Both the position numbers and the translations under genes were made by a program. A stretch of 64,000 bases of DNA from a virus. Within the stretch, counting starts at the first letter, position 1; every line of letters begins with the position of its first letter. The notes beneath the pieces were generated by a model. That model ran no database searches, had not been told where the DNA came from, and was given only the letters and a program-made list of their open reading frames with translations. The DNA lies in IMG/VR virus record IMGVR_UViG_3300042399_002267, one strand, 5' to 3'. This document shows, in pieces, positions 35,973 to 59,369 of this stretch.

Positions 35973-37652
35973 CTAATCCTCGATTTGTGGCATTGACCAA
36001 GTGCCTCTAAGGGCAGATTGGATGTCGAGAGCTGCATTATTGACATTGCTGCCACTAAATGCAGGGGTTGTAGAAATACCAAGTGTAGATGCTGTTCTGG
36101 TATTACTCATTCTCTCAGCAGCTGCAGCAGCAACTCTTTCAGAAGATGCTTGTGCAGATTTGAGTAGAAGTTTGGTTTGTCTGATCATAGCGTCAGCCTT
36201 AAGGTTGTCGTTTAACATTTGATCAGCATATGCATCAACTTCAGATGTTTCAATGATTCCAGCTAATGCTAGTTTACTTGAACATGAATAAGCTGCTTTA
36301 ATTCTGGCTTTTTCAAGATCAGAAGAAGATGTCATCAACTTGACCTGATCACCAGGAGTTTGCTTGACTGTGACAGTTGCAGCATCCTTATCAGAATAGG
36401 TGCCCTTATTCATCATTTCAGAATAGTTGTCTTTTTCCATCTTTGCGCAGTTTGAACATTCAGTTTTTTCATCATGCATTTCAGCATCTGTCATTGATGT
36501 TTCATATCCACATGTTGTACACTTGACTGCATGTCTTTGTGCTTGAGCAACAGTGGTCTTATGTGGCATTGATGGCATTTGAGTAGGAACCTCAAAATAC
36601 TTTGCATCAAGTCCTTCTGATGGATTCTCTAATGAATCCCAATCCACTGTATACTCTAAAGAGCCATCGCCTGAACCTTCGAACTTGCTAGGCTTAGTGA
36701 TATCTGGGAATTGTAAAGAATCAGGGATGTTTGTAGGAACTTTTTGGTCAGCAAATGAAGGGTTCTGTTCCTTGAGAGAATTCCCATCACTTCCTTCTAA
36801 TGTCATAGAAGGATATTCTACTTCACCTGGCATGTTTACCATGTCTTCGTTGTACTTGAATCCTGCTGACGCTGGATATTGCTCTTCCTCTGAAGCAATC
36901 TTCTTAAGAATAGCCTCTCTCTCAGCACGTCTAGCAGCTAATGCTTGTTTAGTCATTTTGTTCACTCCATTACTTGTGTGCATTTTAGGCTCGGAATCTA
37001 ATTCCATTTCATCTTCATCAATGTCCATGTCGTCTTCTGAATCCATATCTGAATCCATATCGTCTGAATCAGTATCCATGTCAGAATCATCTTCCATGTC
37101 CTCATCATCAAGATCAACGTCCATGTCCATATCATCTTCTCCGCCTAGAAGATTGTCGAGCGCTTTCTGCACTGCTTTCTGTGCAACGTCAACCATATCA
37201 GCGGGAACTTCTATTTCAAACGTAGCCATCTCTTCAACATCGTCTACTTCGTCTTCGTCATCATTTAAATCGTCTTCTAAATCATCTTCATCATCTTCGA
37301 TGTCTTCGTCCATGTCTTCCATGTCTTCGTCATCTTCAAATTGATGCATTTCAATTTCTTCATCTTCTGTTTCATCGTTTGCGAAGTCTGCAGTCTCTTC
37401 TGCCCCACCGTCAAGATTGATCATTTTATTGACATGCATTTCGTCCATGCCTGCTTCTCTGGCAACTGACGGTAAATATTTAGCTCTTATTGCATTAGCG
37501 ACAATGGCAGCTTCATCTTTGTTTAAAGATGCAGTTTTTACCATGTCATTGACACATGAGTTAAAATCTTCCTTGTCAGTAACTTGAAGTTCAGCAAGAC
37601 GAAGCGCAGCTAATCTTTGTTGGTGATCGGCATTCGTCATATTTTCTTTCAT
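35973..37652 (-). CDS. capsid scaffolding-like protein with a highly acidic region
   Basis: D/E/M-rich tract, a CxxC…CxxC pair and a helical C-terminus. Located between protease and capsid genes. Confidence 0.6.
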   Translation of the reverse strand: MKENMTNADHQQRLAALRLAELQVTDKEDFNSCVNDMVKTASLNKDEAAIVANAIRAKYLPSVAREAGMDEMHVNKMINLDGGAEETADFANDETEDEEIEMHQFEDDEDMEDMDEDIEDDEDDLEDDLNDDEDEVDDVEEMATFEIEVPADMVDVAQKAVQKALDNLLGGEDDMDMDVDLDDEDMEDDSDMDTDSDDMDSDMDSEDDMDIDEDEMELDSEPKMHTSNGVNKMTKQALAARRAEREAILKKIASEEEQYPASAGFKYNEDMVNMPGEVEYPSMTLEGSDGNSLKEQNPSFADQKVPTNIPDSLQFPDITKPSKFEGSGDGSLEYTVDWDSLENPSEGLDAKYFEVPTQMPSMPHKTTVAQAQRHAVKCTTCGYETSMTDAEMHDEKTECSNCAKMEKDNYSEMMNKGTYSDKDAATVTVKQTPGDQVKLMTSSSDLEKARIKAAYSCSSKLALAGIIETSEVDAYADQMLNDNLKADAMIRQTKLLLKSAQASSERVAAAAAERMSNTRTASTLGISTTPAFSGSNVNNAALDIQSALRGTWSMPQIED

Positions 37653-37713
37653 TTTCTGCTGCTTCCCTTAATTAAAATACAAAATCTTGTATTACAAGAA
37701 ACTGTTATTTTTC

Positions 37714-37738
37714 TTCTATTTTTAAATAGTTTTTACCT
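37714..37738 (-). promoter_or_regulatory. candidate late promoter AGGT-N16-TAGAA for scaffold/decoration/MCP
   Basis: CAGGTAAAAActatttaaaaaTAGAA, nearly identical to the site at 42004-42028. Confidence 0.6.
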
Positions 37739-37781
37739 GCAAAATAGAGGAAGAATGGCTTCTTCCTCTATTTGTACATAT

Positions 37782-40700
37782 TTAGTCAATCCAAGTGATA
37801 TTTACATCAAGTTTTGATGGATTCTTCTTGTTTTGGCTTACAACTGTTTTTGAGTAGTTTCCACAATCATAACAGAATGTATTATTTTTAACCTTATGTG
37901 CTTCTCTATTTCCACACTTAGGGCAAATCATACCAATTGGTAATCTTTTTTCGGTTGTTTTATCAAAATCTGGCATTGCTGTTCTAAGATAAACATCGGA
38001 ATCAACTGTAGCAGCCAATCTGTACATAGCTTTGTATGATGCCATTGGCGCCATAGCACCAGGAGCTCCCATAGGTGGAGCAGGAGGAACTTCAGTTGGT
38101 GCAGTTGCAGCACCTAATCCCATGTCTTCTCCCATGCCTAAATCAGGTAACTCTTCTGCGCCTTTTCCATTGCTTCCCATTGAGACAAGTTCAATCGATT
38201 GAAGAACCTTGTATGTGGTACCACATGCTTGGCAATCTGCATTTGATTCAGAAATGTTTACATCATCAGAGCCACAAACTGGACAAACTGAACCCCAAGG
38301 CTTGATTGCACCAGGCTCAGAGATTTGATCATTAGGATCAGATGCATTCATCTCATCCCCACCAGTCATAGCACTGATACCTAAATCTCCACCTGGAACA
38401 GCAGATGCATCTGGTGCAGGTTGACCAAGATTAGGATCTACAGGACCTGCAGGAGGAGCTGCCGGTGTCATGCCCGGAACTTGTGCATATTTGAGAAGAA
38501 TTTGATTTCTCTTAGCTTCTCTTGATGCTTTGGCAGATGCTGTCATAACAACAACTGGTTCTTCAGTAATCTCGCCAACTGACTCATGTCCAGCATCATG
38601 TTCGGACATCATGGAATCAGAACCATTTGAAACATCAAATGATTTTGTTGATCTTGTTGAAACAGTAGCAGTTACGTCACCATTAGCAGTGACAATCAAA
38701 TCTGTGAATGAGAAAGTATTTGGATCTACTGTAAAACCATGCTCTTGAAGTACAGATATAGCCTTTTGCTTGAATGTTTCTTCAAATGCATCATCAGAAG
38801 GATTAACGCCCTCTAAATCATCTTTTGTGCATACAAATCTCAAGCATTCAGATTTATCTTGAGTTACTTGAATACCAGCAGTTCTTTCTGAGGATCTTTT
38901 GATTTGAATTGCCTTAGTTAGTAATTTCTCAGCCAAATCATAATCTTCAACAAGTCTCTTAGCAGCTACAACAATTGATTTTGTAGGAATGTCAAAGTTA
39001 GTTGAATAATCAGCGAGCCAACCAATAACATTGTTGTCAATATTGTCAGCAGATGCAGTTCTTACTCCCCAGAAATCTCTTCTTTCTCTGGATCTAAGTC
39101 TAGCATCGGTGGAAGATGCTGTTTTAGCTCTGGTGATAGCAGCAATCATTTGTTTTTCTGGCATTGATTGCATACTGTCGATAACTTCACTAGGTGTAGT
39201 TCCAGTTTCTTCACTTGCCATAGCGCCTGCAGAAATGACAGACTTTATTGCTTCTTTGGATGGTAACTTTTCATCTTTATCAACAGCTGATTGAAGAGCA
39301 GATTTTAATTCTTCTGTTTTAGAAGAAGGAGCTTCAACATCTAAGCCTTCAGAAGGTACGCTAACGTCCATCATTAATGAACCAATAATGTTCATAATGC
39401 CTTCTTTGGTAATTGCGCTATCTTCTGCTACTACTGCGATTGCATCCGCCAAGTCTTTAGCAGTGATAGTTGATGTTACTGCATCACCAAGTTGCTTGAG
39501 AATAGCAGCAACTGAATTATCAGGTTCTACATCTTTGCTGAAGAAGTCAGCATTATCAGCTTCATCTGCTCTCATTTCACTTCCTGCAGCAGAGGTGCCA
39601 ATCATTTCAGGCAACATTGGTTCTTCTGCAAGCATTTGTGCAACTTTGATGATTTTGTCAGGAGTTTCCATTGCAGAAACAACAGATCTACCAAGTGCAT
39701 TAATTGTTGCAGACATAATTTCATGAGCAGATGCAGAACCTTCAGTTCTACTTTCAGAAAGTCTCTTTTCAATTACTTCTGTAGGAACGCCTTTAGCAAC
39801 TTCAGCAACTAATTCTGTAAGAGTTTTCATAACTTCAGAATCTTTTACTCTATGTGCATAAAGTCCAGCTTCACCTAGTAAAATTTCTTTTACATCTTCA
39901 GCGCCTTTACCAGTTTGTTTGGATTCAAGTAATTCTTCTCTTACTTTATTCATAACACCAGTATTTTTGCTTTTGACACCATCTTGAAGATTGTCGTAAG
40001 TTTCACCAGTTCTTACTTCTTCAAGTTGCTCTTGTCTTGATTCAAGTCTTTCTTTGACATCAAGCAATGCAGTTCTTACAAAACCAGAATATTGATTTAA
40101 TAATTCTGCAGCAACTTTAGTACCTTGACCATTCTCCATCATGTTAAGTTGAGATTCAGTCAAAATAGGCTCCCAGCTATTTCTCTTGCCGTTGGTAAAT
40201 CCTGTGATGGAACCATCTGTAGAGAGAACAACTTTATTTCCTGCAGCATCTTCGACTTTAAAATCGATAGTTACAGCAGCAGCAAGCTTTTTTCTTTGTT
40301 CTGATGCGATTTTTGCAAAATGATCCATTTCGTTTCTGCCCTCCGCCCCATTATTTTTTGGCGTGTTATTTTTGATATTTTTGTTTCGTTCATTAGCTAC
40401 TCTAATGACTGATTCAATACTGCTTTGAACATCTCTTGAATATCCAATAGAATTCTTAAGTTCTAAAAGACTTTGTGAAAATGACAAAACTTTATTTGTT
40501 TTCTCAGGTGTTTTATACCCATTACTTGCAAACACTTCTCTAGAACCATCATTTGATGCCCATACAAAATGAAGATCAGATGATGCTAGTGCTACACCGC
40601 CACCTACAGGAGATGTTTCTTGCGGTAAAGATAAATCCATTACTCTTCCAACATTTCCCATTGGAGAATAATTAGCAAGACCTACAGGCGCTGCAGCTTG

Positions 40701-41966
40701 TGGAGCTTGTTGAACTGCTTGTTGAGTTTGACCTTGATTTAATGGTTGTGGTCTTTGACCAGAACCAACATCAACACCATCATCAATCATGTCTTGCATA
40801 GTTGCCTGTAAATCAGACATAGCTTTAGTTACTTTTTGAACATGCGTGAGGTCAATATTGTCTTTTCTTGCAAACATGTTCATCACAGCAACTTCTAAGA
40901 AGTTTAATGCAAGGTTGATCATATCCAAGATGTTTAAACCACTTCTTGGATCAATACCCAAAGCATTCAAAATTGCAGCCACTGTAGAGTTTTGACTTGC
41001 TCCTGGACCTGCTAAAAGTTGACCACCAACCAAGTTGCCTGGCGATTGTGCCAATTTCAATGCAGTGTTTGTCGCAGACATTGCCGATCTTAAGAAATTG
41101 TCGTATTCAGATCTTAATTCTGGATTTACTGGAGCACCTTGATGAGCTAAAACAATACTTGATTTGATTTGTTCAGCTTTCTTTTCAAGATTTTCTGCTT
41201 GATTTAAAACATCATCAACATCATAAATTTCTTGAATTTCACAAGCTTCAAAAGCACCATCGCCTACACAAGAAAGCTCTATAAACTTTAAATTGTAGTT
41301 TTCTTCGTAAACTTTTTTGCCTGTAGTTGGATGGGTTTTACCCTTGTGTTTTTTTAAGCATTCACAATAATCTTTGACATCGTATGCTTTGTTGCCACAT
41401 TTTGAGCATGTTCCGTAATCAACAGAACATCCCATAGACACATCGTGAATGATTCCAGTTCTGATATTTCTAGCAATATCAGGATATGCTTCTTCATCTA
41501 CGAAGAAGGTACAATATACACAATTTTCTTTATCATCCCACTCTGCATAAACTACCATCCCTTTGGCTTGTTCAATGTCATCGTTTTTGTGATTTGTATA
41601 AATTGGAACCCCTTCAAATGTCTTATATGCAGGTAACTTTTTTCCTTGAATATCTCTTTCTTTTAAAAGTTCTTCTTTAGAAAAATAATCTCCATTTGCA
41701 TTGCAAATGTCTGCATCTATAGCTCTAGCTCTGACCCAAAGAAGTTTAGCGCCCTGACGAGCTTTCATTTCTTTGACAATATCAAAGTCTTTATATTTTT
41801 CTAAAACATCTTTGGGATCTGCATATAAAGATTGCAAACCAATTTTTGCAGCCTCTCTCATTTGTGATGAGGCTGTCCTAAGCATATGCTCTCTGGCTAT
41901 ATTTCTATCTTGTTCATTTAAGAAACTATCAATTGTGATAGCTCCGCCTTTTGCAATCCTATACAT
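37782..41966 (-). CDS. prohead maturation protease (HK97/assemblin-like) with a long multi-domain extension (1394 aa)
   Basis: N-terminal NANGDYF…PIYTNH…KGMV…DVSMG…FIELSCV. Lies between portal and scaffold, with Zn ribbons in the protease domain and at the C-terminus. Confidence 0.75.
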   Translation of the reverse strand: MYRIAKGGAITIDSFLNEQDRNIAREHMLRTASSQMREAAKIGLQSLYADPKDVLEKYKDFDIVKEMKARQGAKLLWVRARAIDADICNANGDYFSKEELLKERDIQGKKLPAYKTFEGVPIYTNHKNDDIEQAKGMVVYAEWDDKENCVYCTFFVDEEAYPDIARNIRTGIIHDVSMGCSVDYGTCSKCGNKAYDVKDYCECLKKHKGKTHPTTGKKVYEENYNLKFIELSCVGDGAFEACEIQEIYDVDDVLNQAENLEKKAEQIKSSIVLAHQGAPVNPELRSEYDNFLRSAMSATNTALKLAQSPGNLVGGQLLAGPGASQNSTVAAILNALGIDPRSGLNILDMINLALNFLEVAVMNMFARKDNIDLTHVQKVTKAMSDLQATMQDMIDDGVDVGSGQRPQPLNQGQTQQAVQQAPQAAAPVGLANYSPMGNVGRVMDLSLPQETSPVGGGVALASSDLHFVWASNDGSREVFASNGYKTPEKTNKVLSFSQSLLELKNSIGYSRDVQSSIESVIRVANERNKNIKNNTPKNNGAEGRNEMDHFAKIASEQRKKLAAAVTIDFKVEDAAGNKVVLSTDGSITGFTNGKRNSWEPILTESQLNMMENGQGTKVAAELLNQYSGFVRTALLDVKERLESRQEQLEEVRTGETYDNLQDGVKSKNTGVMNKVREELLESKQTGKGAEDVKEILLGEAGLYAHRVKDSEVMKTLTELVAEVAKGVPTEVIEKRLSESRTEGSASAHEIMSATINALGRSVVSAMETPDKIIKVAQMLAEEPMLPEMIGTSAAGSEMRADEADNADFFSKDVEPDNSVAAILKQLGDAVTSTITAKDLADAIAVVAEDSAITKEGIMNIIGSLMMDVSVPSEGLDVEAPSSKTEELKSALQSAVDKDEKLPSKEAIKSVISAGAMASEETGTTPSEVIDSMQSMPEKQMIAAITRAKTASSTDARLRSRERRDFWGVRTASADNIDNNVIGWLADYSTNFDIPTKSIVVAAKRLVEDYDLAEKLLTKAIQIKRSSERTAGIQVTQDKSECLRFVCTKDDLEGVNPSDDAFEETFKQKAISVLQEHGFTVDPNTFSFTDLIVTANGDVTATVSTRSTKSFDVSNGSDSMMSEHDAGHESVGEITEEPVVVMTASAKASREAKRNQILLKYAQVPGMTPAAPPAGPVDPNLGQPAPDASAVPGGDLGISAMTGGDEMNASDPNDQISEPGAIKPWGSVCPVCGSDDVNISESNADCQACGTTYKVLQSIELVSMGSNGKGAEELPDLGMGEDMGLGAATAPTEVPPAPPMGAPGAMAPMASYKAMYRLAATVDSDVYLRTAMPDFDKTTEKRLPIGMICPKCGNREAHKVKNNTFCYDCGNYSKTVVSQNKKNPSKLDVNITWID

Positions 41967-42028: not shown

Positions 42029-42036
42029 GTAAAAAT

Positions 42037-42090: not shown

Positions 42091-44391
42091 TTATAAAACA
42101 ATTTGCCCATTAGGTTGAAAATTTGATCTTTTCTTTATAGCATTTACAATAACATTTATACAATCTTGTGGATGATCATTTAATTCTTTATCTGTAAATC
42201 TGACAATAATCCAACCATGAGATGCCAAGTCGGTGTCTCTTCTTTTATCTCTTGCTATTTTTTCTGGGTTATTGTGCCAAATTTCACCATCTGCTTCAAC
42301 ACCTATTCTCAAAGCTGGGATTGCAGCATCAAGTTGAAAATCTTGTGTGTTTCCAGCTGAATATTGTGCATACAATGGATATGGCATATTGATTGACATC
42401 AACATTCCATAAAGTTTTTTCTCTAATGATGTAAACAACTGTGGATTGTTTGTCTGCATTTTCTTTTTAGCAGCAGTTCTAATGTTTTCATCTTCATCAA
42501 CAGAAAATCTATTAAGTTCAATTTTAGCTTCATGATTTAACGGGCTAGAAGTGTCTCCGCCAAAGAAAGGCGTATACATATTTCCATACAACCCATCATA
42601 TTCATCAGGTAGTCTTCCCAAGTAGCCTCTGCCATTTACAGGAACTAAAGACTTGATAAACCCTTCATGCGCAGCAGATTTATATCTTTTGCTAGCTAAA
42701 CGTTTAGTTGTTCCATCAAAATGAATTTGCATTTTTTCATCAACAATTTCATTAATCATCGAAGATGCTAATCTATAGTTTTCATCTCTTGAATTAGCAA
42801 GTGGTGGCGCTAATCCTGGTGCGCCCATTCCTGACATATCAGGAGCTTGCTGTGCTCCAAAACCTTGACCTGAAACTGGACCTGATTGAATGTTCATGCT
42901 GAATTCAGGAACACCATAATTTGGATCCTTCATGAATGTTGCACCTTGTTCAAATCTCAATCTTTCAATTTCTTGATCGACATCTAAACCGAATGCTTCA
43001 ATTAATGAAACATTTGAAACTACTCCATTTTGGTTGGCTGTTACAAGTGTTTGAAGTTTATTAGTTTCATCTCTTAATTCCAAAGAATTGAATTTGATTT
43101 TAGGATAAATGATTTCGTCTTGTCCTCTTTCGCCTTCAACTACAAATCCATTCCACTGAGAAACTGGCTTAAATATTTTTTGTTCTATCCAGTTAGCAAC
43201 TTCATGTCTCCAAGTTTCAATTCTTTGCTCCATTGCAAGAAGACCAACTTGACCAGCTGAGTATGCAGGACCTTCTCCAGTTAATAACACTTTACTAAGC
43301 ATCATTCCATCTAGAAGTTCATTTTCGATTAATTCAAATTGATTGGAGATATCATAAATTTTTCCACTAGCTCCATACCATTCTAAATCAAAGTTATGGT
43401 GAGTAACAAGTGTAAGGTTAGGGTCATTTGCCAAAGATGACAATTCATCTTGAACGCTATCAATATCTTCTTGAGATGCAGGACGAGTATCAGAGCCTAT
43501 TTTGACAACCTTAACAGGAATGATTAATCTTTCAGCAATTATATATTGAGCCTGTCTAAGTTTATCTTTGTAAGTTAATGTTTGAAACAATGGTCTTACA
43601 ATAGATGTGCCATAATCTTCCCAAGGATTAGAGCCATATTTAAAATGATGAATTGATATTGGGTTTAATTTGATTGGTTCACCCTTTTGTATCAATCTCT
43701 TTACACCATCAGGGATATTTTCATATACTTCTTTTGGGCTACGTTCTGTGACAATTCTTACTTCTTCTGCAGATGGTCTGTAAGAATATGATCCATGTTG
43801 ATCAATCATCCCTGGAGATTTTAAAACACTGTCAGGATTTAGGATAGAACATGATTTCCAAGTGGCTCCGTCATGTTGACATTCTTCGCCTTTTTCATTG
43901 TCCCAGTTTGATCCAAAACAATGAGGGCAATCAATTGACATTAATACGAATGCATCACCCAATAAATAATAGACTTTGGAAATCTCCGGGAGCCATTTTT
44001 GGAAATTTAAAACTTCAATTAATTTTTCAAAATAGTCTTTTACATAAGTGGAAGAACACTCAAGTTTCCATCCTGAAAATGGATAAGTAGCATAAAAATT
44101 TATTCCAGCAGCAACTTTAGGTTCATTATTTTTCCACCAGTTTGCCCAAAGATATACTTCACGTCGAGCATTTGGAATCTGAAAAGATGAAGGAGTTAAG
44201 AACGGTGAATAAAAGTTAGGAGAAGTGGTTACTGAATTTACAGATGCTTGCCTTACATTAGGACCTGGACCTTGAGAAACTCTGCTAGTGGCATGATTTC
44301 TTTTTTCAGTAACATCACTTATTGTTGTTTCACCAATTACTGATTTTGCTGATGATTTGATAGCAGCTGCCAATGAAAGTCTATTTGCCAT
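42091..44391 (-). CDS. portal protein with C-terminal DUF559 (Vsr-like PD-(D/E)XK) nuclease domain
   Basis: Portal core (…YYLLGDAF…IHHFK…YGTSIV…). C-terminal LEKKLY…QY…FQLDAAIPALRIGVEADGEIWH…RDKRRD…GWIIVRF is DUF559-like. Confidence 0.8.
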   Translation of the reverse strand: MANRLSLAAAIKSSAKSVIGETTISDVTEKRNHATSRVSQGPGPNVRQASVNSVTTSPNFYSPFLTPSSFQIPNARREVYLWANWWKNNEPKVAAGINFYATYPFSGWKLECSSTYVKDYFEKLIEVLNFQKWLPEISKVYYLLGDAFVLMSIDCPHCFGSNWDNEKGEECQHDGATWKSCSILNPDSVLKSPGMIDQHGSYSYRPSAEEVRIVTERSPKEVYENIPDGVKRLIQKGEPIKLNPISIHHFKYGSNPWEDYGTSIVRPLFQTLTYKDKLRQAQYIIAERLIIPVKVVKIGSDTRPASQEDIDSVQDELSSLANDPNLTLVTHHNFDLEWYGASGKIYDISNQFELIENELLDGMMLSKVLLTGEGPAYSAGQVGLLAMEQRIETWRHEVANWIEQKIFKPVSQWNGFVVEGERGQDEIIYPKIKFNSLELRDETNKLQTLVTANQNGVVSNVSLIEAFGLDVDQEIERLRFEQGATFMKDPNYGVPEFSMNIQSGPVSGQGFGAQQAPDMSGMGAPGLAPPLANSRDENYRLASSMINEIVDEKMQIHFDGTTKRLASKRYKSAAHEGFIKSLVPVNGRGYLGRLPDEYDGLYGNMYTPFFGGDTSSPLNHEAKIELNRFSVDEDENIRTAAKKKMQTNNPQLFTSLEKKLYGMLMSINMPYPLYAQYSAGNTQDFQLDAAIPALRIGVEADGEIWHNNPEKIARDKRRDTDLASHGWIIVRFTDKELNDHPQDCINVIVNAIKKRSNFQPNGQIVL

Positions 44392-44399: not shown

Positions 44400-44801
44400 T
44401 TATACCAGAGTTTTATTAGACGGTAAATTGTCATAAAAAACTGAAGGATCGCCTTTACCAGAATTGTACTGTATGGTTCCTTCACCATTTTTCATACTCA
44501 TCCCGCCTTTGCCCTTTTCAACTTGCAACATGTTTATTGAGTCTTCTTCGTAATGTCTTCCATTTTCAAGTTGACTTTGCAAAGTTTGAAATCTAGGGTC
44601 ATTAGCCTCTATATCAGATTGTGGAACATCTTGAACAATTTTTTCGAATAATTGAGATTGATTTGTTTTGGAATCAATATAAAAGTCATCTAAAGATCTT
44701 CCTTGGTCTAAAAGAAACTTAATCATTTCTCCTGACATTTCAGGTTTTTGAGGATTTATTACTCCCCCGCCAATTCCATCTTTAGCAATTCTGTACCACA
44801 T
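44400..44801 (-). CDS. hypothetical head-associated protein
   Basis: 133 aa. N-terminus MWYRIAK matches the protease N-terminus MYRIAK. Confidence 0.7.
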   Translation of the reverse strand: MWYRIAKDGIGGGVINPQKPEMSGEMIKFLLDQGRSLDDFYIDSKTNQSQLFEKIVQDVPQSDIEANDPRFQTLQSQLENGRHYEEDSINMLQVEKGKGGMSMKNGEGTIQYNSGKGDPSVFYDNLPSNKTLV

Positions 44802-49270: not shown

Positions 49271-49609
49271 CTATGTTTTTTTATCCAATATGAGTTTTTT
49301 GCCCTTCAAAATTAATTTGTCTCCAATATTAATTTTGAGTTTTTTGAATATGCCTTTATATGCTTCTACAACATATTTGACATCATCTGCGTCTGGAGCA
49401 ACAAGTTTTGTGCTCTGTTTTTCTAAATCTTTAAAATCTAAAATTTCAAAATCATTATTTAGAAATGCCAAACTAAGAGAAAAATCTACATTATTATTCC
49501 AAAAAGAATGTTGACCTTTAGAAGGAAATGTAAAAAATACTACTTCCAATTCTTCTAAAGGTTCTGCAAACATCAATCCCTTAGTTCTTTTTTGATCGTT
49601 GTCAGCCAT
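49271..49609 (-). CDS. DUF192-family protein
   Basis: KGLMF…SFWNNNVDFSLSLAFL…KYVVE. Confidence 0.75.
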   Translation of the reverse strand: MADNDQKRTKGLMFAEPLEELEVVFFTFPSKGQHSFWNNNVDFSLSLAFLNNDFEILDFKDLEKQSTKLVAPDADDVKYVVEAYKGIFKKLKINIGDKLILKGKKLILDKKT

Positions 49610-49651: not shown

Positions 49652-50140
49652 TCAAGTAGCGATTTTTTTAAATTTTGTATTTGATTGAACTACCGCTTTA
49701 GCTTCGTTTAAATCAAATTTATCTTTGGTTCTATTTTTTCTGAATTCATTTGTTGTTTCAGAACTAAGATAATGATCTCTAAGAGCCAATTTAGCTTTTT
49801 CAGTAAGCGAAACTGATCTTCCGTAACCAGTAAGTAATCCTGAAGTTTTAAGTGCTAAAAGATCATTATCTGTAATATCAGAAGGAACATGGCAAACTTT
49901 AGCTTCTCTATTATGAGTAAGTTGATTTGCAGCAGTGACAACTTCATCAACATTTTTGTCAATAGTCATAAGCATTTCCATATAACGATCACCAACTTTA
50001 GCAGCTTGCTTTTGTGGTGGTGGAGTTGAACCCATGAGTTGAATTTGGATATCTGATAAACCCAAATTGCTCATTGACTGAGTGTCAAATAATTCTGCGT
50101 GTAATTCTAAAGAATGAACTGGCTTAATTGGTAAAGGCAT
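49652..50140 (-). CDS. hypothetical protein
   Basis: 162 aa, SD AGGAG, ends FKKIAT. Confidence 0.75.
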   Translation of the reverse strand: MPLPIKPVHSLELHAELFDTQSMSNLGLSDIQIQLMGSTPPPQKQAAKVGDRYMEMLMTIDKNVDEVVTAANQLTHNREAKVCHVPSDITDNDLLALKTSGLLTGYGRSVSLTEKAKLALRDHYLSSETTNEFRKNRTKDKFDLNEAKAVVQSNTKFKKIAT

Positions 50141-50149
50141 AATGTTCTC

Positions 50150-50593
50150 CTATCTAAGTGGAATTCTATTTTTCCAACCATTTCCATCATCTACATTTTT
50201 CTGATATGTTGCTTCAAATGTAAAGGAATCTACGTCTCCAGCCATTGAAGGACTAGATGCTAAATTGCCTGGATCTATATACGCTGGACCTGGAACATTA
50301 TCTGGACCATGTAAAAGCCCTTCGATATTTTGTCCATCAGCTTCTCCACCCAAATCAAAATATTCTTTAGGAATTTTATTTGGTTTTTTGGTCTGTCTCC
50401 ACTCATCACCCTCTTTAAATTCATCTTCCAACTCGTCATATTCGACAAGATAAATATTTGGGTTTTTAGTGACAGATTGTTCTACATAATATTGGGCTAC
50501 TTTTTCAAAAATTAAATCAGAAGACTTGAAATTACCCTTACTATCTAGGATGTAGGCAATCCTTAATGTTTTATGGAGAATATTGAGATCCAT
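50150..50593 (-). CDS. hypothetical head-associated protein
   Basis: Start placed at ATG 50593. Contains LRIAYILDSKGNFKSSDLIFEKVAQ. Confidence 0.7.
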   Translation of the reverse strand: MDLNILHKTLRIAYILDSKGNFKSSDLIFEKVAQYYVEQSVTKNPNIYLVEYDELEDEFKEGDEWRQTKKPNKIPKEYFDLGGEADGQNIEGLLHGPDNVPGPAYIDPGNLASSPSMAGDVDSFTFEATYQKNVDDGNGWKNRIPLR

Positions 50594-50615
50594 AATCTTT
50601 GTGTTACTTAATTTT

Positions 50616-51737
50616 TCACAAATTTCCTGCAAATTCTTTTTTTACAACTTGTAATGCATTTTCAATAGTAGTGTCCATATCAAAATATTTATAATTGCCT
50701 AATCTTCCACCAATTAATAAATTTGGACAATTGACAGATGCAAAATTTCTATACTTTTCGTATTTTTCATTATTGATTTCATCATTTATTGGATAGTATG
50801 GATCTTCATTAGGAATGTTTTTATCAAATGTTTTTGAATACTCATAAGTAATTACTTTTTCATCTGATTTACTATTGTAAAAATAATTATGTTGAATGAT
50901 TCTCGTAAAATGAAAATCCTCAGATGGATATGTCATCAATGCCGTGCCTTGAATGTCAATCTTTGTATTGTAACTACTATGTTTGAGTGTTCGGTATTCT
51001 AAATCTCCAAACATGTAATTAAAATATTGATCAATAGGTCCTGTGTAAATTACTTTTTCAGCCAAAGAGTTTAAAAAATCTCTATTTACAATGTAATCAC
51101 ATTCTAACCAAACAACAATGCCTGATAATAGTTTTTCAAAAATTGAAGTGTAACCATGAATCGGAATACCTTCGTAAACATGATCATCAGAATAATATCG
51201 ATCATTTAAAGAAAATCTTAATGGTATTCGTTTAGCAATTGATGCTGGTAATAATTTTGGCTCTCTGCCCCATTGTTTTTTGGTGTATCCGTAGAAAAAC
51301 ATTTCGTACAAAGTTCTACCCATGGTGCTAAGACAATATTCTTCGAAATTTTGTGGATTTTCAAATAAAATTTTATCTGAATTAATTCTTTCTTTTGCTT
51401 GAAGTGGAGTGACAACATCATTCCAAACATGATGAATAGTAGATAAATTTATTGGCAAAGAATAGATTTTATTATTTACAAAAGCTTTATTTCTTAGAGT
51501 GAAATTATTAAATTCTGCAAATTTATTTATATAATCCCAAACATATTTTTTTGAAGTATGAAAAATATGTGGACCATATTTGTGTATATGATAATCTTCA
51601 AATGGTTCAGAATAACAATTTCCACCAATATGATTTCTTTTATCAACTACTAATACTTTTTTACCTAATTTATTAGCTTCATAAGCAAAAATGGAGCCGA
51701 ATAATCCGGCTCCAACAATAAGATAATCATATTTCAT
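50616..51737 (-). CDS. glf: UDP-galactopyranose mutase
   Basis: YDYLIVGAGLFG, HIGGNCY, HKYGPHIFHT, PYYP, GRLGNYKYFDMD. Confidence 0.93.
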   Translation of the reverse strand: MKYDYLIVGAGLFGSIFAYEANKLGKKVLVVDKRNHIGGNCYSEPFEDYHIHKYGPHIFHTSKKYVWDYINKFAEFNNFTLRNKAFVNNKIYSLPINLSTIHHVWNDVVTPLQAKERINSDKILFENPQNFEEYCLSTMGRTLYEMFFYGYTKKQWGREPKLLPASIAKRIPLRFSLNDRYYSDDHVYEGIPIHGYTSIFEKLLSGIVVWLECDYIVNRDFLNSLAEKVIYTGPIDQYFNYMFGDLEYRTLKHSSYNTKIDIQGTALMTYPSEDFHFTRIIQHNYFYNSKSDEKVITYEYSKTFDKNIPNEDPYYPINDEINNEKYEKYRNFASVNCPNLLIGGRLGNYKYFDMDTTIENALQVVKKEFAGNL

Positions 51738-51753: not shown

Positions 51754-52809
51754 TTAACTTGGGTTTGGTGAAAAGTGCCCATATAGTCCAATCCCATCAT
51801 AAATTTCTTCAACACCCTTATCTTCTCCACCCATGTCATTATAATCATAATAATTTCCAGGAAAAGACTTGCCATGCTGATTGAAAATACTTATTTCTTT
51901 AGGATTCATTTGAATTTTTTTACCCATCTCTTGCATTGGAACAACATTAGCTTTTGTATCTGGATATGGATTTCTTAGCATGGTCTCTTCATTGTATCCC
52001 GATGTGTCTTGATAAGATCTGTTAGCTTGATTACCTTCATTTAAGTATTCTTCAAGACCTTCGAAACCTGCTAAACCATCTAAAACTTTATATTGTCCAT
52101 CTGGAAAAGAATGAAATTGATATTCATCAAATTGATTATTTGGCTCACCTTCTGGCTTTACAGTAAACCTATTACGTCTCTTTACAGGATAGTCATAATC
52201 TTGAGGATCATGAACAAAACCATATTCTTTTGCAGTTCTGTTTGGATTGTTAGAAGAGATTACATCATGTCGTCTTTGAGGTTTTATTTGATCAGGAACT
52301 TTATCTTCGTATTCGTGAGCTCTTTTTTTGCTGTCATCAAAATGCCTTCTCTCAGCTAAACTTTCTTCCATTGTTCTTAAGTGTTCAGGTTTAGCATGAA
52401 AGTTTTCTTTGATATATGCTGGGCTATTTTTGATTAAACTTGATGCATGGTCTTCCAAAGATTTTTTGTAATTGTGAAGTTGCATTCTTAATTTTAATTT
52501 TAGTCTTTCAGTGGAAGACAATTCGTAATTAAGATCACCATCGGTATATGTGTGTTGAACAGAAAGTTGTTTCTCAATATTTTCATCATTTACATTATAT
52601 TGATCTAAATAAATATGGGTTTTTGAAAGAATTTTTTCAAAACTGTCGTCTTCATCAACATAAATATTAAGCTCAGAACCACCACGATTGGTGCCACCCC
52701 TTCCAAAAGGGCTACGACCAGGAGAGAAAGGTGATCCATTACCACCACCACCTACGCCACCAAATTGTGCGGTTTTGATATTATTTGAAGACATAATGTT
52801 TTTTTCCAT
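51754..52809 (-). CDS. hypothetical head-associated protein
   Basis: 351 aa. N-terminal KTAQ is followed by a Gly-rich linker. Confidence 0.75.
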   Translation of the reverse strand: MEKNIMSSNNIKTAQFGGVGGGGNGSPFSPGRSPFGRGGTNRGGSELNIYVDEDDSFEKILSKTHIYLDQYNVNDENIEKQLSVQHTYTDGDLNYELSSTERLKLKLRMQLHNYKKSLEDHASSLIKNSPAYIKENFHAKPEHLRTMEESLAERRHFDDSKKRAHEYEDKVPDQIKPQRRHDVISSNNPNRTAKEYGFVHDPQDYDYPVKRRNRFTVKPEGEPNNQFDEYQFHSFPDGQYKVLDGLAGFEGLEEYLNEGNQANRSYQDTSGYNEETMLRNPYPDTKANVVPMQEMGKKIQMNPKEISIFNQHGKSFPGNYYDYNDMGGEDKGVEEIYDGIGLYGHFSPNPS

Positions 52810-52815: not shown

Positions 52816-54939
52816 TTATCTAAACCTTCCACCTAAATTCATCAATCTTGCATTAGGAAGTCTTATAATTATTTTTGATGTTAAACATTCATAAGATACA
52901 GCAGCTACAGCATCGCAAATGTCATCTTTGTATCCTGACAAAGACTCGATGTAATATCTTTTGCCTTTCCATTTCTTTTGTAAAAATTGAAATTGGATTT
53001 TAGCTTCTTGCACTTCATTAAGTGGTTGTCTTTCACCACGCATATCAAGATAACTACCACCTGAAATATCATACATGTCAATTCTTTCTTCTCTAATTAA
53101 TTGACTTAATTCAGTGTAAATATCTTCTTTGTATTGTTTATTAAAATGTTTTTCAACAATATTTATTCCAGCAGTTTTCAATCTTATAATTGAAGATTGT
53201 GAATTCCATTGATCAACACTAACTTGTTTAAATCTAAATCTTTTATGAAGATCAATGACATAATCTTCAACTTCTCTAGTGTCAATTGGTTGATTTTTGG
53301 ACATTGGATTCCAAAAGTGAATGTGATCAATAACTACTCGCTTAAGTGGTCTATTATCAGGACCTACAGTTCCATACATAGGCTCTGTATGAGCAACACA
53401 CAATGCATAATAATCTGATGTTCTAGCAGGATCTAAATGACAATAATATTCAAACATATTGTCAGCATATTCTTTTCTTTTGACCATACTCATGCTACTG
53501 AACATAGAATTAATCAAATCAGCCATAAACATAGGATCTTGAGAAGATGCACCAAATTCAGCCCCATATTGCATTTGAAATTCTGATGGATTTTTCTTTT
53601 TTTCGTTATCTAAAAATTCTTTCCCAATATTCGGATTTGCTAACCATGTTGGCAATCTCATTATCAAAGTCGTAGGATCTTCAACTCTGTTTTCATGCAA
53701 GTCGTGCAATAACCCAATAGGTCCTTTGGGGTTTGAAAGCATCATCATCTTTCCGTCTTTTCCAAAGGTTGCAAGAGATGGCTTCAAATCATCATATAAT
53801 GCGTAATCTAATCCTGAATCGGGATTATCACCTGCCATAGCAGCAATTTCGTCCATGATTATGCACCAGCAAGTTAGACCAACAAGACCTGATGCACTTG
53901 AAGAACCACATTTTAAAGTTAAAGAACCAGAAAATGGATTTAACCCTTGAGCAGTACGGCGTTCATTTTCCTTAATATCATGGTCTGTAAGGAATCTCAT
54001 TTCAAGTTCAGTGTCTTTGCCAATAAATGGATTGAAATATGGCGAGGCTAGTACTGTTTGTTTGATTTTTGAGAAGATAGCATTCTTTGCTTGTTCTTCA
54101 TTTTTAGCAACATTCAATAAAACAATTTGATCAAATTCCATTAAACCATATCTGGCTTGTGGATGACCCATAGAAATCAATCTGTACAGTTCATAAAGTG
54201 CAATAGCTGAGACTAAGAATGATTTTCCACTACGTCTTCCAAGTACCAGTACAAGTTCTTGAAATTTGTATCTATTTGTACATTTCTCGTATATTTGATG
54301 TCTTAGTTTGGAATCTATTTCATCAGAAAACAAAAGATCTTTTTCTGATTGAAAACCATCAATAACAGGTCTATCTGATAATTTATCTACAAGTCTGATT
54401 GCATCAAAGTTTGTAGCTTCTTCTTTTGCATCTTCATATCTTTTTATTCTGACATCATCATCTAAATTAACGCATTCAAGACATGGAGAGTTATCAACTG
54501 TAAAAAGTGGTTTTACTATTTTACCAAGTTTCTTTTTTCTTAAAGTATCTTCCTCATTGTCCTTGATATGTTTCCAAACGCACCCTTCGCATCCATTTCT
54601 TTCTTCTAAAGGAACATCTTGAATTTCTAAATTTTCATTTCCTTCTTGCCCCATATAAAAACACTTGAGAATCAATCTTTGCCAAGGATGTGGCTTCAGA
54701 TTACAAAAATAAGGGTGTTCTATAAATGTTATGATGTCTACGATTTGATCAGGGTTAAATCTTGTCTTCTCTGGTTTTTTTGGAGGGGATATATCAGTTC
54801 TGGCACTTGGCAAAATGATATCGTCAAACTCAGATGCATAGCCAGTGTCTTTGAAGAATTGAGAAACTTCATTAGCTTGCTGCATAAGTTGACTTTTGAG
54901 GTCATGTTGCGCTAATTTCTGCGGATTTGGTTTTCTCAT
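52816..54939 (-). CDS. terL: terminase large subunit
   Basis: Walker A VLGRRSGKS, Walker B IIMDEIA, coupling motif LSNP, nuclease HLDPA…SVDQW…DDICD. Confidence 0.92.
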   Translation of the reverse strand: MRKPNPQKLAQHDLKSQLMQQANEVSQFFKDTGYASEFDDIILPSARTDISPPKKPEKTRFNPDQIVDIITFIEHPYFCNLKPHPWQRLILKCFYMGQEGNENLEIQDVPLEERNGCEGCVWKHIKDNEEDTLRKKKLGKIVKPLFTVDNSPCLECVNLDDDVRIKRYEDAKEEATNFDAIRLVDKLSDRPVIDGFQSEKDLLFSDEIDSKLRHQIYEKCTNRYKFQELVLVLGRRSGKSFLVSAIALYELYRLISMGHPQARYGLMEFDQIVLLNVAKNEEQAKNAIFSKIKQTVLASPYFNPFIGKDTELEMRFLTDHDIKENERRTAQGLNPFSGSLTLKCGSSSASGLVGLTCWCIIMDEIAAMAGDNPDSGLDYALYDDLKPSLATFGKDGKMMMLSNPKGPIGLLHDLHENRVEDPTTLIMRLPTWLANPNIGKEFLDNEKKKNPSEFQMQYGAEFGASSQDPMFMADLINSMFSSMSMVKRKEYADNMFEYYCHLDPARTSDYYALCVAHTEPMYGTVGPDNRPLKRVVIDHIHFWNPMSKNQPIDTREVEDYVIDLHKRFRFKQVSVDQWNSQSSIIRLKTAGINIVEKHFNKQYKEDIYTELSQLIREERIDMYDISGGSYLDMRGERQPLNEVQEAKIQFQFLQKKWKGKRYYIESLSGYKDDICDAVAAVSYECLTSKIIIRLPNARLMNLGGRFR

Positions 54940-55628: not shown

Positions 55629-55649
55629 AATGGCTTTATACAAAGCAGA

Positions 55650-55674
55650 ACAAGCCACTACTAGAGCGGCTTGT
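55650..55674 (-). terminator. hairpin between the first head-operon gene and terS/terL
   Basis: ACAAGCCGCT-ctagt-AGTGGCTTGT (one G-U pair) followed by a partly T-rich tail. Confidence 0.45.
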
Positions 55675-55693
55675 GCATTTTTTAGGATGAATA

Positions 55694-56407
55694 CTAATCA
55701 GATAGCGCTCTTTTAAGTCTCAAATATGGAGAGACTTGATCAGCAGCAGAAACTATATACTCATCTGCGATGCCGAAATCTGCATAATTTCCTTTTGTAA
55801 ATTTTTCACTTGTTGATGTTCCATTTGATAAATCTACTTCTGCTGAACCTTTTCTCATGCTTACAACATATTTATTTGAAGATGCAGTTTTAATTTCTGC
55901 ACTTTCTTTTTGAGCAATTAACACTGAATTTAACAATGCTTCTTCTACCCAAGGTTTTAATGCTACATGCAAATGTCCCTTGCCTTGATCAGAAGATTTA
56001 GCAATTTCAGCAACTCTTTGCCAAAATCCTAAACCACGCTCATCAGCTTTTACGATTGAATATGTACCTGAACAAAGTCTTTTTACAAATTCTCTTGCAC
56101 TGTATTTTTCAAGTGATTTTTCAATTACCGGAATACAATCTGCATATTTTGTTGGAACTATAGCGACACTAATAACTTCTTTTTGAGCAGATGTAGGCTC
56201 ATTAAATAAATTAGAAGCAACTCTGTCTGCTAATTCTAAATCGAAATTGTCTGCAGCTAATAACTCTACAACTTCTGATTTGGAAAATCCTTGGCTAGCA
56301 TATTTTTCAGCTTGGGAACTGGCTACAACAAATGCGCCATCACTAAGTGTACGCAACTCATTGCGCCAATTATAAATCATGTCATCGGATATGTTTTTTT
56401 CAACCAC
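55694..56407 (-). CDS. hypothetical protein, first gene of the head operon
   Basis: GTG at 56407 with SD GGGGAG. The longer 56572 start in the track runs through the intergenic region. Confidence 0.7.
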   Translation of the reverse strand: MVEKNISDDMIYNWRNELRTLSDGAFVVASSQAEKYASQGFSKSEVVELLAADNFDLELADRVASNLFNEPTSAQKEVISVAIVPTKYADCIPVIEKSLEKYSAREFVKRLCSGTYSIVKADERGLGFWQRVAEIAKSSDQGKGHLHVALKPWVEEALLNSVLIAQKESAEIKTASSNKYVVSMRKGSAEVDLSNGTSTSEKFTKGNYADFGIADEYIVSAADQVSPYLRLKRALSD

Positions 56408-56436
56408 AGTGACTTCTCCCCTTTTAAATAAAAATA

Positions 56437-56469
56437 ACCCTAGACAAGAATGTTGTATGTCAAGGGTTT
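56437..56469. repeat. inverted repeat in the divergent intergenic region
   Basis: AACCCTAGACA…TGTCAAGGGTT, 10 of 11 bases match. Confidence 0.55.
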
Positions 56470-56517
56470 TTGTGGAACATATCAATATAATACAAAGAAT
56501 TATAAAATATATTCCAT

Positions 56518-56543
56518 AGGTAATTATAGTTAGATTGTAAAAT
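56518..56543 (+). promoter_or_regulatory. candidate late promoter AGGT-N16-TAAAA
   Basis: AGGTAATTA tagttagattg TAAAAT, 12 nt before ATG 56556. Confidence 0.45.
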
Positions 56544-56555
56544 AATATCAGTATT

Positions 56556-59369
56556 ATGTGGAATTTTAGCATTCATAAAAAAACTGTAAAGGCAATGGAA
56601 GCCTTTGATGTCTTAAGTAGTGAGGGTATCGATTGGACTGGTTCATTCCAGGATACATTTAAAAAATACAATTTTAACTCTCATGATAAAATGCCTACCG
56701 TTTATGACCTAATAAATTTTATTAAGTATGCTAAAAATACAAGAATCTTGGATATTTATTCAAGAGATAAAAATAAAGGTTCTGATCTTAGATGGTTTTG
56801 CAAACAATTAATTACGTTTGTAGTTGATCAGCTTAGGCACACTGGATCTCCAAACGCAGACACACTTATCATTACTAATTTCTTAGCTCAATGTGCAAAA
56901 AATTATGAAACTGATAATCCTTATAATAAAATCGAAATTGGCACACCAGTTTCAAGTGAAAAAGCAATGACAATGTCAATGAAAAATTTAATTTCAATGA
57001 GATACGAAACATTGAATTTATTAACTGCAAATAATATTAACATTGAAAATAGTTGCATGATGTACATCATGAGAGGTGACGATGTCAAAAATCATGGTGT
57101 TAATGCAGATGATTATGCTAGAAATCAGATAATAGAACGTGCAATTGATAAATATCCTAAACTTGGATATTTTAAATCTTTAGACAGTGTTTTATTTTAT
57201 TTGAAAAGTGACATAGCCACAAAAGATAATTTGTTAGAAATTTCTGATTATCTTAAATCATTTTCTCTTTCTGGTTTGAAATTTACAGATTTATTTTCTT
57301 TTGTAGATGGATTGACAGGATCTAGTTTAGATGGAAAATCTATTAAAGATATTATTTATAATGTCCAGACTGATGATCAATTAGAAATATATCTTTATCT
57401 AAGAAACAAAGTGGTTAAAAATAATAATGATTATGAAATAACCAAATCTCTTTTAGAGATTGTTTATAAATTTTTATCTTCATTTTACTTAACTAAATCT
57501 AATATCGAAAAATTATTAAAAGATGATATGTTTGTTGAATATTGTCAAAATCAAGGCGAAAATATAAAAGATCTATGGTTGTATAAGGGTTTTTCAACAG
57601 TTGAAGTAATGCAAAACTACTTAACAAAAAATCCTGAAAAAATTAAGAATTTCTCAGAAGATGCATTGGCAAGATTAAACGCTACATCACTCCAAAATAT
57701 TAATCAATCAGCAATTGAAGCTCAACAATCAATTTTAAAAGATGGACTGTCTTTATTACAAAATGCTATAGACACAAATGTAATTAAGAAACTAGATCCT
57801 TTTGTAAGAGATTTTAATCGTGATTACTCATCAGAATATAAAAAGCCTGAAAAACCTTCAAATGCATCTCCAGAAGAAATGAAAGAATATGAATTGCAGG
57901 TTTCTGCAGCAAAAATCTTTACAGAATGGCAAATTAGTTATTTAGACAGAATGGAGCAAGAAAGATTATTTACATCTATTTCTAAAGAAGATTTGGAAAA
58001 ATATGCATCTAATATGATAATTCTAGAATTTGATGCAAATCAATTAAAAGTTTTTTTAGAATCAAAAAATATTACCAAATTTCAAATTCAAGGTGTAGAT
58101 TTTGTAAGTGGATTATGGAGAGGTTTATTTGTACCAAGGTTTCCTACACCTTCAGGACAACCTGTTCCAGCAATTGTAATTAGAACTGATGCATATGACT
58201 CTTTAGAACATCATAAACAGCTATCAGAAAATTTAGGATTTGAAGCTTTTAGGTTTACAGAATCTACTAGAAGACATGAAATTGCACATGCATTACAATA
58301 TCTTGCTGTTGGTGATGTTATGCTAATGGAACCGCAAGAATTAAATCCAGAGCTTACTGAAGGTGAAGCTTATATTATGGATCCGGCAGAATTGTATGCA
58401 AGAGTACATGGAGATATTCCTTATTTATATAATTTATTTGATTCTAGAATTAGAAATCTAACTGTTTCTAAAAAAATATATGAAGCTGCTAAAGAACAAT
58501 GGATTCACGACATTGTTAATGAAAAAATACACTTAATGTCTGGTGGTACTAATCTAAGAAGATTAATGATGCAAGATGAAACACCAGAATTTAGAAAAGA
58601 AAATTTTGGTAAATTAAAAAAATCTGATGGAACAGAAATTGAACTACCAGACCCTCTTGAGGCTATATCAAAAATTCTTGCAAGGCAAAGAATAAAACTT
58701 GAAATGATTTTTCATGATTTATTTACAGTTGCTGATAAAAGAGAAAAAAGAAAAGGTTTGATTAGCAAAAAGAATAGACTTAAAAAACAATTAGAAAGTC
58801 TTCCTGAATACGAATATTTAAAAAGAATTAATCTCGAGAAGGAACTTTATGAAGCAGAAACTGATTTGATAAAAGTTGGTCAAGAACTTATTGTTGATGT
58901 TGAAAATGTATCTACTTCTGTTTTAAAAGGTTATTTGAAAGATTATTTTACAAAAATAAGCAATGCTGTAGCTGAAGGTTTATTAGGACCCGATGTCCTG
59001 AATGTAGATGATCCTGATAGACCTAAATCTTCAGAAAAACCATCCGTCGAACCTGAATTGCCTACAGCTTCCGATATTTCTGATATTACTGAATTTATGA
59101 TTGGACAATCTAAACCAATTCCTGGTGGAAGAAAAATTGATGAAATTATTCCATCATTCATGGGCAAGGCTTTACCAGCTGATTCTTGGACTTGGGAAAA
59201 GGGGACGGATCCAAATAGTCCAGAAAACAGAAAAAGACCTAAGGGAAATTTTCCAGGAATAGAGCCTGTAAAGCCAATGCCTCAATCTAAAATAACTATT
59301 GATGCAGATGATCCATTCAAGACAGATAAAACTGCGTCAGTCTATAATCATAACAGATCAAAAAGATAA
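56556..59369 (+). CDS. large protein with a zincin metallopeptidase motif (937 aa)
   Basis: RRHEIAHALQY (HExxH) followed by YIMDPAELYAR (third-ligand Glu). Pro-rich C-terminal tail. Confidence 0.7.
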   Translation: MWNFSIHKKTVKAMEAFDVLSSEGIDWTGSFQDTFKKYNFNSHDKMPTVYDLINFIKYAKNTRILDIYSRDKNKGSDLRWFCKQLITFVVDQLRHTGSPNADTLIITNFLAQCAKNYETDNPYNKIEIGTPVSSEKAMTMSMKNLISMRYETLNLLTANNINIENSCMMYIMRGDDVKNHGVNADDYARNQIIERAIDKYPKLGYFKSLDSVLFYLKSDIATKDNLLEISDYLKSFSLSGLKFTDLFSFVDGLTGSSLDGKSIKDIIYNVQTDDQLEIYLYLRNKVVKNNNDYEITKSLLEIVYKFLSSFYLTKSNIEKLLKDDMFVEYCQNQGENIKDLWLYKGFSTVEVMQNYLTKNPEKIKNFSEDALARLNATSLQNINQSAIEAQQSILKDGLSLLQNAIDTNVIKKLDPFVRDFNRDYSSEYKKPEKPSNASPEEMKEYELQVSAAKIFTEWQISYLDRMEQERLFTSISKEDLEKYASNMIILEFDANQLKVFLESKNITKFQIQGVDFVSGLWRGLFVPRFPTPSGQPVPAIVIRTDAYDSLEHHKQLSENLGFEAFRFTESTRRHEIAHALQYLAVGDVMLMEPQELNPELTEGEAYIMDPAELYARVHGDIPYLYNLFDSRIRNLTVSKKIYEAAKEQWIHDIVNEKIHLMSGGTNLRRLMMQDETPEFRKENFGKLKKSDGTEIELPDPLEAISKILARQRIKLEMIFHDLFTVADKREKRKGLISKKNRLKKQLESLPEYEYLKRINLEKELYEAETDLIKVGQELIVDVENVSTSVLKGYLKDYFTKISNAVAEGLLGPDVLNVDDPDRPKSSEKPSVEPELPTASDISDITEFMIGQSKPIPGGRKIDEIIPSFMGKALPADSWTWEKGTDPNSPENRKRPKGNFPGIEPVKPMPQSKITIDADDPFKTDKTASVYNHNRSKR

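Follow-up and report, generated by a model that had tools for sequence, protein, structure and literature searches.

The 64,000-nucleotide stretch of viral DNA under study (IMG/VR record IMGVR_UViG_3300042399_002267; below, the window) carries a module of phage head genes at 35973-59369, whose products repeat a short peptide motif consisting of a basic residue, one of Thr, Ile, Val or Leu, and Ala ([KR]-[TIVL]-A). The question raised by this locus is what the motif is for. In the original prediction it was taken for an Ala-specific maturation and targeting code that marks the internal proteins of the capsid. The explanation favoured here is that [KR]-[TIVL]-A, as a rule followed by Ser, Gln, Ala or Lys, is probably what the prohead serine protease of the phage recognises and cuts, and that an N-terminal tag ending in it resembles the capsid-targeting sequence (CTS) of phage T4. 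The predicted code was borne out in part: the enrichment, specificity and conservation of the motif, its position at the expected places of processing, the fold of the protease and the portability of the tag were established in this work, and from these we infer cleavage and packaging.

The 17 proteins of 35973-59369 (7618 amino acids) were used as the head set and the other 39 proteins of the window, tail proteins included, as the comparison set, while expected counts were obtained from 500 shuffles preserving the composition of each protein. The motif was observed 55 times in the head set versus 15.9 ± 3.8 times after shuffling (z about 10), and 0 of the 500 shuffles reached 55. The 39 other proteins contain 20 copies versus 17.3 expected, the tail and metabolic proteins being at expectation, so the comparison of head and metabolic proteins proposed in the original prediction turned out in its favour. 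All the motif copies it had quoted are indeed present, including DKTAS close to the end of the HExxH protein, two in PurA and KVAQ in the product of 4733-5122. When all tripeptides of the head set were ranked blindly, RTA came first (11 versus 1.0, p 1e-8), KTA second (10 versus 2.1) and TAS fourth. The Ala residue is followed by Ser 14 times (4.2 expected) and by Gln 8 times (2.2 expected), and the extended form [KR][TIVL]AS occurs 14 times in the head set versus 1.2 expected and once elsewhere versus 1.4. The excess also persists after removal of the protease and scaffold proteins (34 versus 10.9, p 2e-8). These counts and their recurrence in other genomes show a genuine enrichment that is restricted to the head module and conserved over a wide clade.

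Another explanation could be that a functionless motif simply arises from the composition, the secondary structure or the repeated modules of scaffold-like proteins, which are helical and charged. The proteins in question are indeed charged, Ala-rich and helical, and short repeats (ITE, EKQL, MGH, YMG and VPR) are strongly over-represented in the polyproteins of related loci (L047-L080). Five alternative orders of the same residue classes, however, were found in the head set 12-23 times versus about 16 expected, leaving one enriched order of six, and [KR]-x-A with a residue other than Thr, Ile, Val or Leu in the middle (P2) is not enriched in the head set. A composition or helix artefact was rejected on account of this order dependence and P2 specificity. 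Moreover, the 55 sites are encoded by 41 distinct 9-mers, the excess recurs in phage G and in a Bxz1-type phage at 35-39% protease identity, and the motif is found at the N-termini of unrelated proteins. A functionless by-product is thus already disfavoured and very improbable. A cause at the DNA level, such as a shared nucleotide word or a promoter and start cassette, was also rejected, given the 41 distinct 9-mers, the unrelated DNA upstream of tagged genes and the synonymous variation of their codons; with so many different 9-mers the signal sits in the peptide, not in the DNA.

Five proteins of the head module, which is encoded on the minus strand together with all its features located below, are significantly enriched one by one. 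These are a very acidic scaffold-like protein of 559 aa (35973-37652; 7 sites versus 1.0 expected), a protease-scaffold polyprotein of 1394 aa (37782-41966; 14 versus 3.8, p 5e-5), the portal of 766 aa (42091-44391; 5 versus 1.2), a protein of 540 aa whose function is unknown (44803-46425; 5 versus 1.15, p 0.007) and a likewise uncharacterised protein of 305 aa (48274-49191; 6 versus 1.46, p 0.004). The two last are candidate substrates of the protease, and the product of 44803-46425 may alternatively be an internal protein. Weaker signals were detected in the products of 50150-50632 and 51754-52809.

The polyprotein carries the enzyme that would read the motif. Its residues 50-245 (approximately) resemble head-maturation proteases, in agreement with a PHROG match to this class at residues 82-241, and an AlphaFold2 model of residues 1-330 reached a mean predicted local distance difference test score (pLDDT) of 80. 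In this model the protease domain (residues 67-250 approximately; 41217-41768) is predicted to have the gp21/assemblin fold of the MEROPS clan SH type: the best VIA-align match is T4 gp21 (5jbl, Z 10.0, root-mean-square deviation 2.6 Å over 129 aligned residues), followed by the herpesvirus proteases of varicella-zoster virus (VZV; 1vzv, Z 9.0) and of herpes simplex virus 2 (HSV-2) and human cytomegalovirus (HCMV), with Z of 7.4-7.6. The sharing of this fold with herpesvirus assemblin and prohead proteases is supported at the level of the model. Matches to the protease domain outrank unrelated matches to the same segment, and those to a helical hairpin (residues 250-310) are separate. Foldseek retrieved the same families with weak E-values of 0.02-0.04, so that clear scores come from VIA-align only, and a sequence profile of the protease compared with PDB sequences revealed nothing relevant. 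Distant sequence matches were found to proteases of Erwinia and Dickeya jumbo phages. His126 (in TNH) and, after it, Ser177 (in VSMG) are nearly invariant, being conserved in at least 90% of 44 orthologues, and their catalytic role is predicted from this conservation.

In several relatives a LAGLIDADG intein (Pfam Intein_splicing, LAGLIDADG_3) is inserted directly after Ser177-Met-Gly. Protease open reading frames (ORFs) with such an intein were found in loci L030, L032, L038, L050 (L050:2505-4904), L056, L076 and L079, and an intein is also present in a tagged CCA-type enzyme of locus L152.

The first 330 residues of the 44 orthologous polyproteins (14-82% identity) were aligned. Their N-terminal 60 residues or so cannot be aligned except for two features, K-x-A at residues 3-5 and KTA at residues 30-32. 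In the window these correspond to the N-terminal MYRIAK (41949-41966) and to an RTA(|S) site ahead of the protease domain (41871-41879), respectively. Just past the domain, at the end of the C-terminal helices where the pLDDT of the model drops, lies a KLA(|Q) site (residues 304-306; 41049-41057), an analogue of the release site of herpesviruses; all 11 orthologues aligned there read [KR][LVI]A. Basic-x-Ala is also retained at several further sites of the polyprotein, with Lys and Arg exchanged and a variable middle residue. VKTAS, KKIAS and TRTAS are all present in the scaffold 35973-37652, and one of its sites, RTA(|S) at 36090-36098, is situated about 40 residues from the C-terminus, as an analogue of the herpesvirus maturation site. 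In some loci the scaffold tail is a protein by itself, in others it closes a polyprotein of 1761-2390 aa. Tails from across the clade do not align; nevertheless, the motif is found between positions -100 and -25 in 40 of 48 non-redundant tails versus 8.9 expected. In the portal, RLA|S (residues 540, 564) and RTA|A (residue 638) lie between the core and a C-terminal nuclease domain of the DUF559/MTES_1575 (Vsr-like) family (residues 640-766 approximately; 42091-42900), which is thus preceded by three sites.

These positions suggest how the head might mature. Inside the procapsid, the protease would remove the propeptide at its own N-terminus by cuts at residues 5 and 32, and a cut at KLA|Q (residue 306) would release it from the scaffold modules that follow. 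It would also cut the scaffold at several sites, the one about 40 residues from the C-terminus detaching a presumed capsid-binding tail, part the portal core from its nuclease and process several internal head proteins of unknown function. If so detached, the nuclease could work inside the head or be injected. The scissile bond would lie after Ala, as suggested by the analogy with assemblin and by the preference for Ser or Gln at the next position. A short tag, M(W)Y[KR]xA, would bring proteins into the prohead and afterwards be removed.

Instead of being cut, the sites might be bound and serve docking or assembly, for example by holding scaffold and cargo to the inner face of the capsid or to the protease, with cleavage taking place elsewhere or nowhere. 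Enrichment and conservation demonstrate selection on the peptide, not proteolysis; several sites fall within predicted helices, for example ERVAAAAAE in the scaffold, and N-terminal tags would be compatible with a targeting role alone. However, the sites stand where protease-scaffold polyproteins are known to be cut, that is, on either side of the protease domain and close to the C-terminus of the scaffold, and a small P1 residue with Ser or Gln at P1' resembles the assemblin site. The polyprotein also occurs in both fused and split gene arrangements. In several distant relatives the protease ORF is followed, with no separate ORF in between, by the small gene that precedes the major capsid protein (MCP) gene, and the window scaffold gave no BLAST match to the long polyproteins of such relatives, so the junction of fusion or fission could not be placed on a site. 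Docking without cleavage is considered rather unlikely.

The favoured explanation, cleavage by the phage's own protease, gains breadth from other genomes. A search of IMG/VR with the MCP yielded 80 related loci (MCP identity 57-98%), many of them on contigs of 300-490 kb. In about 60 of these loci the motif exceeds expectation 2-5.5-fold in the portal, the protease polyprotein (1376-2306 aa in relatives) and the scaffold ORFs upstream of the MCP gene, whereas the ORFs downstream of it are at expectation; blind tripeptide scans of divergent loci often placed K[TVL]A among the top five. The whole genome of the cultured Bacillus phage G (497.5 kb) was divided into 25 bins of 20 kb, of which only the first, 1-20 kb, extending from the terminase to gp21, is enriched (34 versus 11.8, p 1e-7). 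Its protease gp19 is 39% identical to the window protease over residues 88-246. A Bxz1-type mycobacteriophage encodes a homologue of 1370 aa (gene 97 product; 35% identity in the protease domain) with 11 sites versus 3.5 expected, followed by a small protein and the MCP. The order portal, protease, scaffold, small protein, MCP is the same in the relatives, phage G and Bxz1-type phages, with the protease between portal and MCP.

In the original prediction the N-terminal tags were likened to those of T4. The relatives do have short tags that end in the motif, on unrelated proteins scattered over their genomes. The polyproteins of the relatives almost always start with M-x(1-3)-[KR]-x-A, except for one subclade with MIKRG-ISGG, and orthologues of the 133-aa protein that begins with MWYRIAK in the window (44400-44801; tag at 44781-44801) begin with MWY[KR] and are encoded upstream of the portal. 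The related loci contain 1042 distinct ORFs, of which 65 begin with M-x(1-6)-[KR][TIVL]A versus 4 for the reversed pattern, and 41 others with M(x)W[YF][KR]. BLAST sorted the 91 tagged ORFs into 58 clusters, most of which have a single member; the DNA upstream of these ORFs is not related, and the codons vary synonymously. Among 2.9 million viral contigs, the exact back-translation of MNWYKKAQ was found in only 12 stretches, at least six of them in contigs with this MCP. In five close relatives (300-479 kb) ATG-TGG-TAY-[AC][AG] has 8-13 matches per genome versus 0-3 for the control, and most of these are true ORF starts reading MWY[KR]xAQ. The tags of the relatives end in [KR]-x-A, the motif enriched in the head proteins and presumed to be cut there. 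By analogy, the tag would most likely act like the T4 CTS, directing its proteins to the capsid.

Tagged proteins with recognisable domains include CCA/poly(A)-polymerase-type enzymes with HD, as well as PcfJ-like, ART-PolyVal, NUDIX+HAD_SAK_2 and InPase proteins. Such domains are typical of the 'polyvalent' proteins of phages, which are thought to travel with the DNA. Phage G possesses a tag of its own, MKRLIKK[S/A/G], which starts about 15-19 ORFs across the genome versus 1.5 expected (for example, those at 16055, 28218, 73330, 147651, 245985, 254625 and 446697). Several of the MKRLIKK ORFs continue with an HGT(S) motif, which suggests enzymes similar to ADP-ribosyltransferases. Tandem arrays of small tagged ORFs (MNWYKKA.., MKII[KR]TA..) were also noted (L065:11985-15148, L074:1006-2179, L072:11573-17353); their detectable similarity is limited to the tag, suggesting cassettes of diverse small cargo proteins.

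The motif, and above all the tag, might also be read by another machine, a phage or host unfoldase-protease of the ClpXP type or a host peptidase, and lead to timed degradation or to trimming of the N-terminus. The tags MKII[KR].. and MKRLIKK bear a loose resemblance to N-terminal ClpX recognition signals. Besides, phage G encodes both ClpP and ClpX, which were detected in its particles (PMC12484599). Against this stand the restriction of internal site enrichment to head-module proteins, the tag at the start of the protease polyprotein itself with conserved sites flanking its catalytic domain, and the fact that the 120-kb contig showed no Clp genes. Such a role is quite improbable. Returning to a tag that serves the prohead protease, a wider version can be proposed tentatively: phage G-like megaphages and Bxz1-like actinophages may share the basic-x-Ala specificity of a gp21/assemblin-fold protease, and a portable tag of 6-8 residues that ends in the motif, in the versions MWY[KR]xA|Q, MKII[KR]TA, MNWYKKAQ and MKRLIKK[SAG], might be necessary and sufficient for loading arbitrary proteins into the capsid.

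Several observations weigh against cleavage by the prohead protease as the general meaning of the motif. About 16 of the 55 sites (~30%) would be expected by chance, and some fall in folded enzymes such as the large terminase (TerL), where cutting is unlikely. The original prediction extended the motif to most proteins of the head operon; there is no excess in the HExxH protein (1 versus 1.6), TerL, the MCP, the mutase or the DUF192 protein. Nor was independent support obtained for its inclusion of a window gene outside the head operon (4733-5122, with KVAQ). The MCP site GRTA|LAQ was dropped as evidence and is uninformative, because the entire block GR[TV]ALAQ around it is conserved as one piece. 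Conservation of the [KR]xA columns in the polyprotein (0.54) is only moderately above that of control patterns (0.07-0.44). In some relatives P1 is Gly or Ser, and in some the strict motif is missing from the scaffold tail. Only two proteins of the window, the polyprotein and the 133-aa protein, bear a tag. Processing of phage G gp27 is reportedly mentioned by Gonzalez et al. 2020. The gp27 chain in PDB 6wkk is near full-length (280 of 282 residues) and is therefore silent on processing, and mature N-termini were not found in the published phage G work, Gonzalez et al. 2020 not included.

The window itself is a low-GC (about 30%) fragment of a giant phage, with a parent contig of 119.8 kb; relatives with 95-98% identical MCPs have contigs of 300-358 kb. 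The GC content is 0.39-0.41 (approximately) at 34000-40000, where the MCP, scaffold and protease genes are located, versus 0.26-0.34 across most of the window. The head module is ordered portal, protease polyprotein, scaffold, 225-aa protein, MCP. The MCP (34381-35235; 284 aa, PHROG 2522) has no delta domain, matches gp27 of PDB 6wkk with E 2e-91 and is 49% identical to phage G gp27 by BLAST. Directly upstream of its gene is that of the 225-aa protein (35265-35942), in the place occupied in phage G by the decoration gene gp26. Neither protein of this segment (34381..35942) has an excess of the motif (MCP 1 versus 1.07).

The stretch from the portal to the terminase encodes about ten proteins, mostly of unknown function, together with a DUF192 protein (49271-49609) and a UDP-galactopyranose mutase (50616-51737). 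The latter two lie inside the head module and contain no motif, so the motif set does not take in every gene of the operon. Two proteins of 317 and 271 aa (46427-48195), also uncharacterised, have 2 and 1 sites, neither being significant alone, and two small proteins of 162 and 160 aa (49652-50632) have 2 sites each, the one at 49652-50140 ending in FKKIAT. A protein of 351 aa (51754-52809; 2 sites versus 0.21) has IKTA|Q (residues 11-14) ahead of a Gly-rich stretch and carries NIKTAQFGGVGGGG, as quoted in the original prediction. TerL (52816-54939) has 3 sites versus 1.1, which is not significant, and an ORF of 292 aa (55694-56572) has 3 versus 0.89 (p 0.06). The first 35 residues or so of this ORF are very hydrophobic and it overlaps the start of the divergent HExxH gene at 56556; its real start is probably further downstream, as had been assumed in the original prediction. 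Pfam gave no match for the HExxH protein or for most of the uncharacterised head-module proteins.

Should the motif be a code for cleavage and loading, sequence alone could reveal which proteins a large set of megaphages, most of them uncultured, keep inside the head or inject. Cleavage would also make the mature boundaries of scaffold, portal and cargo proteins predictable. A short loading tag, if true, would lend itself to the packaging of foreign proteins in very large capsids and, should it operate across the wide clade, would mark injected effectors such as ADP-ribosyltransferases, RNA-repair and nucleotide-modifying enzymes. Phage G and the Bxz1-type mycobacteriophages are cultured relatives in which the idea is testable.

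These two groups are among the closest known systems. Phage G (protease gp19, MCP gp27, portal gp14) and Bxz1-type phages have a homologous MCP (49% identity), protease (37-39%) and portal (28%, to that of phage G), and the motif is enriched in their head modules. The phage G protease, by contrast, is a separate protein of 300 aa, where the window has a polyprotein, and most other genes have no detectable relation: BLAST of the window proteins against phage G gave matches only for the MCP, the protease, the portal and one enzyme of a sugar island. The literature searched, Gonzalez et al. 2020 not covered, describes the Glu-type motifs of T4, phiKZ and SPN3US and yielded no Ala-type motif or tag for phage G-like or Bxz1-like phages.

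The giant phages phiKZ (gp175) and SPN3US (gp245) likewise use one protease for many internal head proteins, with a short motif and several candidate sites per propeptide (PMC10052503). Their proteases, however, cut after Glu in A/S/G-x-E, as mapped by experiment, whereas the putative P1 in the window phage is Ala. Many head proteins are cut at a short motif by the T4 and SPN3US proteases, and the motif of T4 also closes its CTS (PMC10052503, PMC9026906). The window protease shares the fold of T4 gp21 and, as in T4, one short motif is reused in many head proteins. The T4 CTS (of IPI-III and Alt) is an N-terminal tag of 6-10 residues that ends in the protease motif and is carried by otherwise unrelated proteins, as are the tags described here. 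T4, though, cuts after Glu in (L/I)-x-E, while the window phage has basic-x-Ala, for which targeting and cleavage are proposed; the T4 protease is a free protein of about 200 aa, and here it forms the N-terminal domain of polyproteins of 1394-2306 aa.

The layout mirrors that of herpesviruses, in which a protease-scaffold polyprotein has a release and a maturation site. Assemblin (UL26/UL80) matches the window protease in fold, and both systems join protease and scaffold in one chain that has a conserved site directly behind the protease domain and another a few dozen residues before the scaffold C-terminus. The assemblin consensus (V/L/I)-x-A|S, given as x-x-A|S in the original prediction, agrees with the motif in Ala at P1 and in the preference for Ser at P1', the latter enriched here, and differs at P3, which is aliphatic in assemblin and Lys or Arg in the window, by construction of the motif and with an enrichment that depends on this order. 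The window phage also has far more sites, spread over more putative substrates, among them the portal and internal proteins; sequence similarity to assemblin is not detectable, and the protease belongs to a bacteriophage lineage. The herpesvirus resemblance is one of mechanism, not of family membership, and the combination of a gp21 fold, a protease-scaffold fusion and an Ala-type site would bring the capsid maturation of phages nearer to that of herpesviruses.

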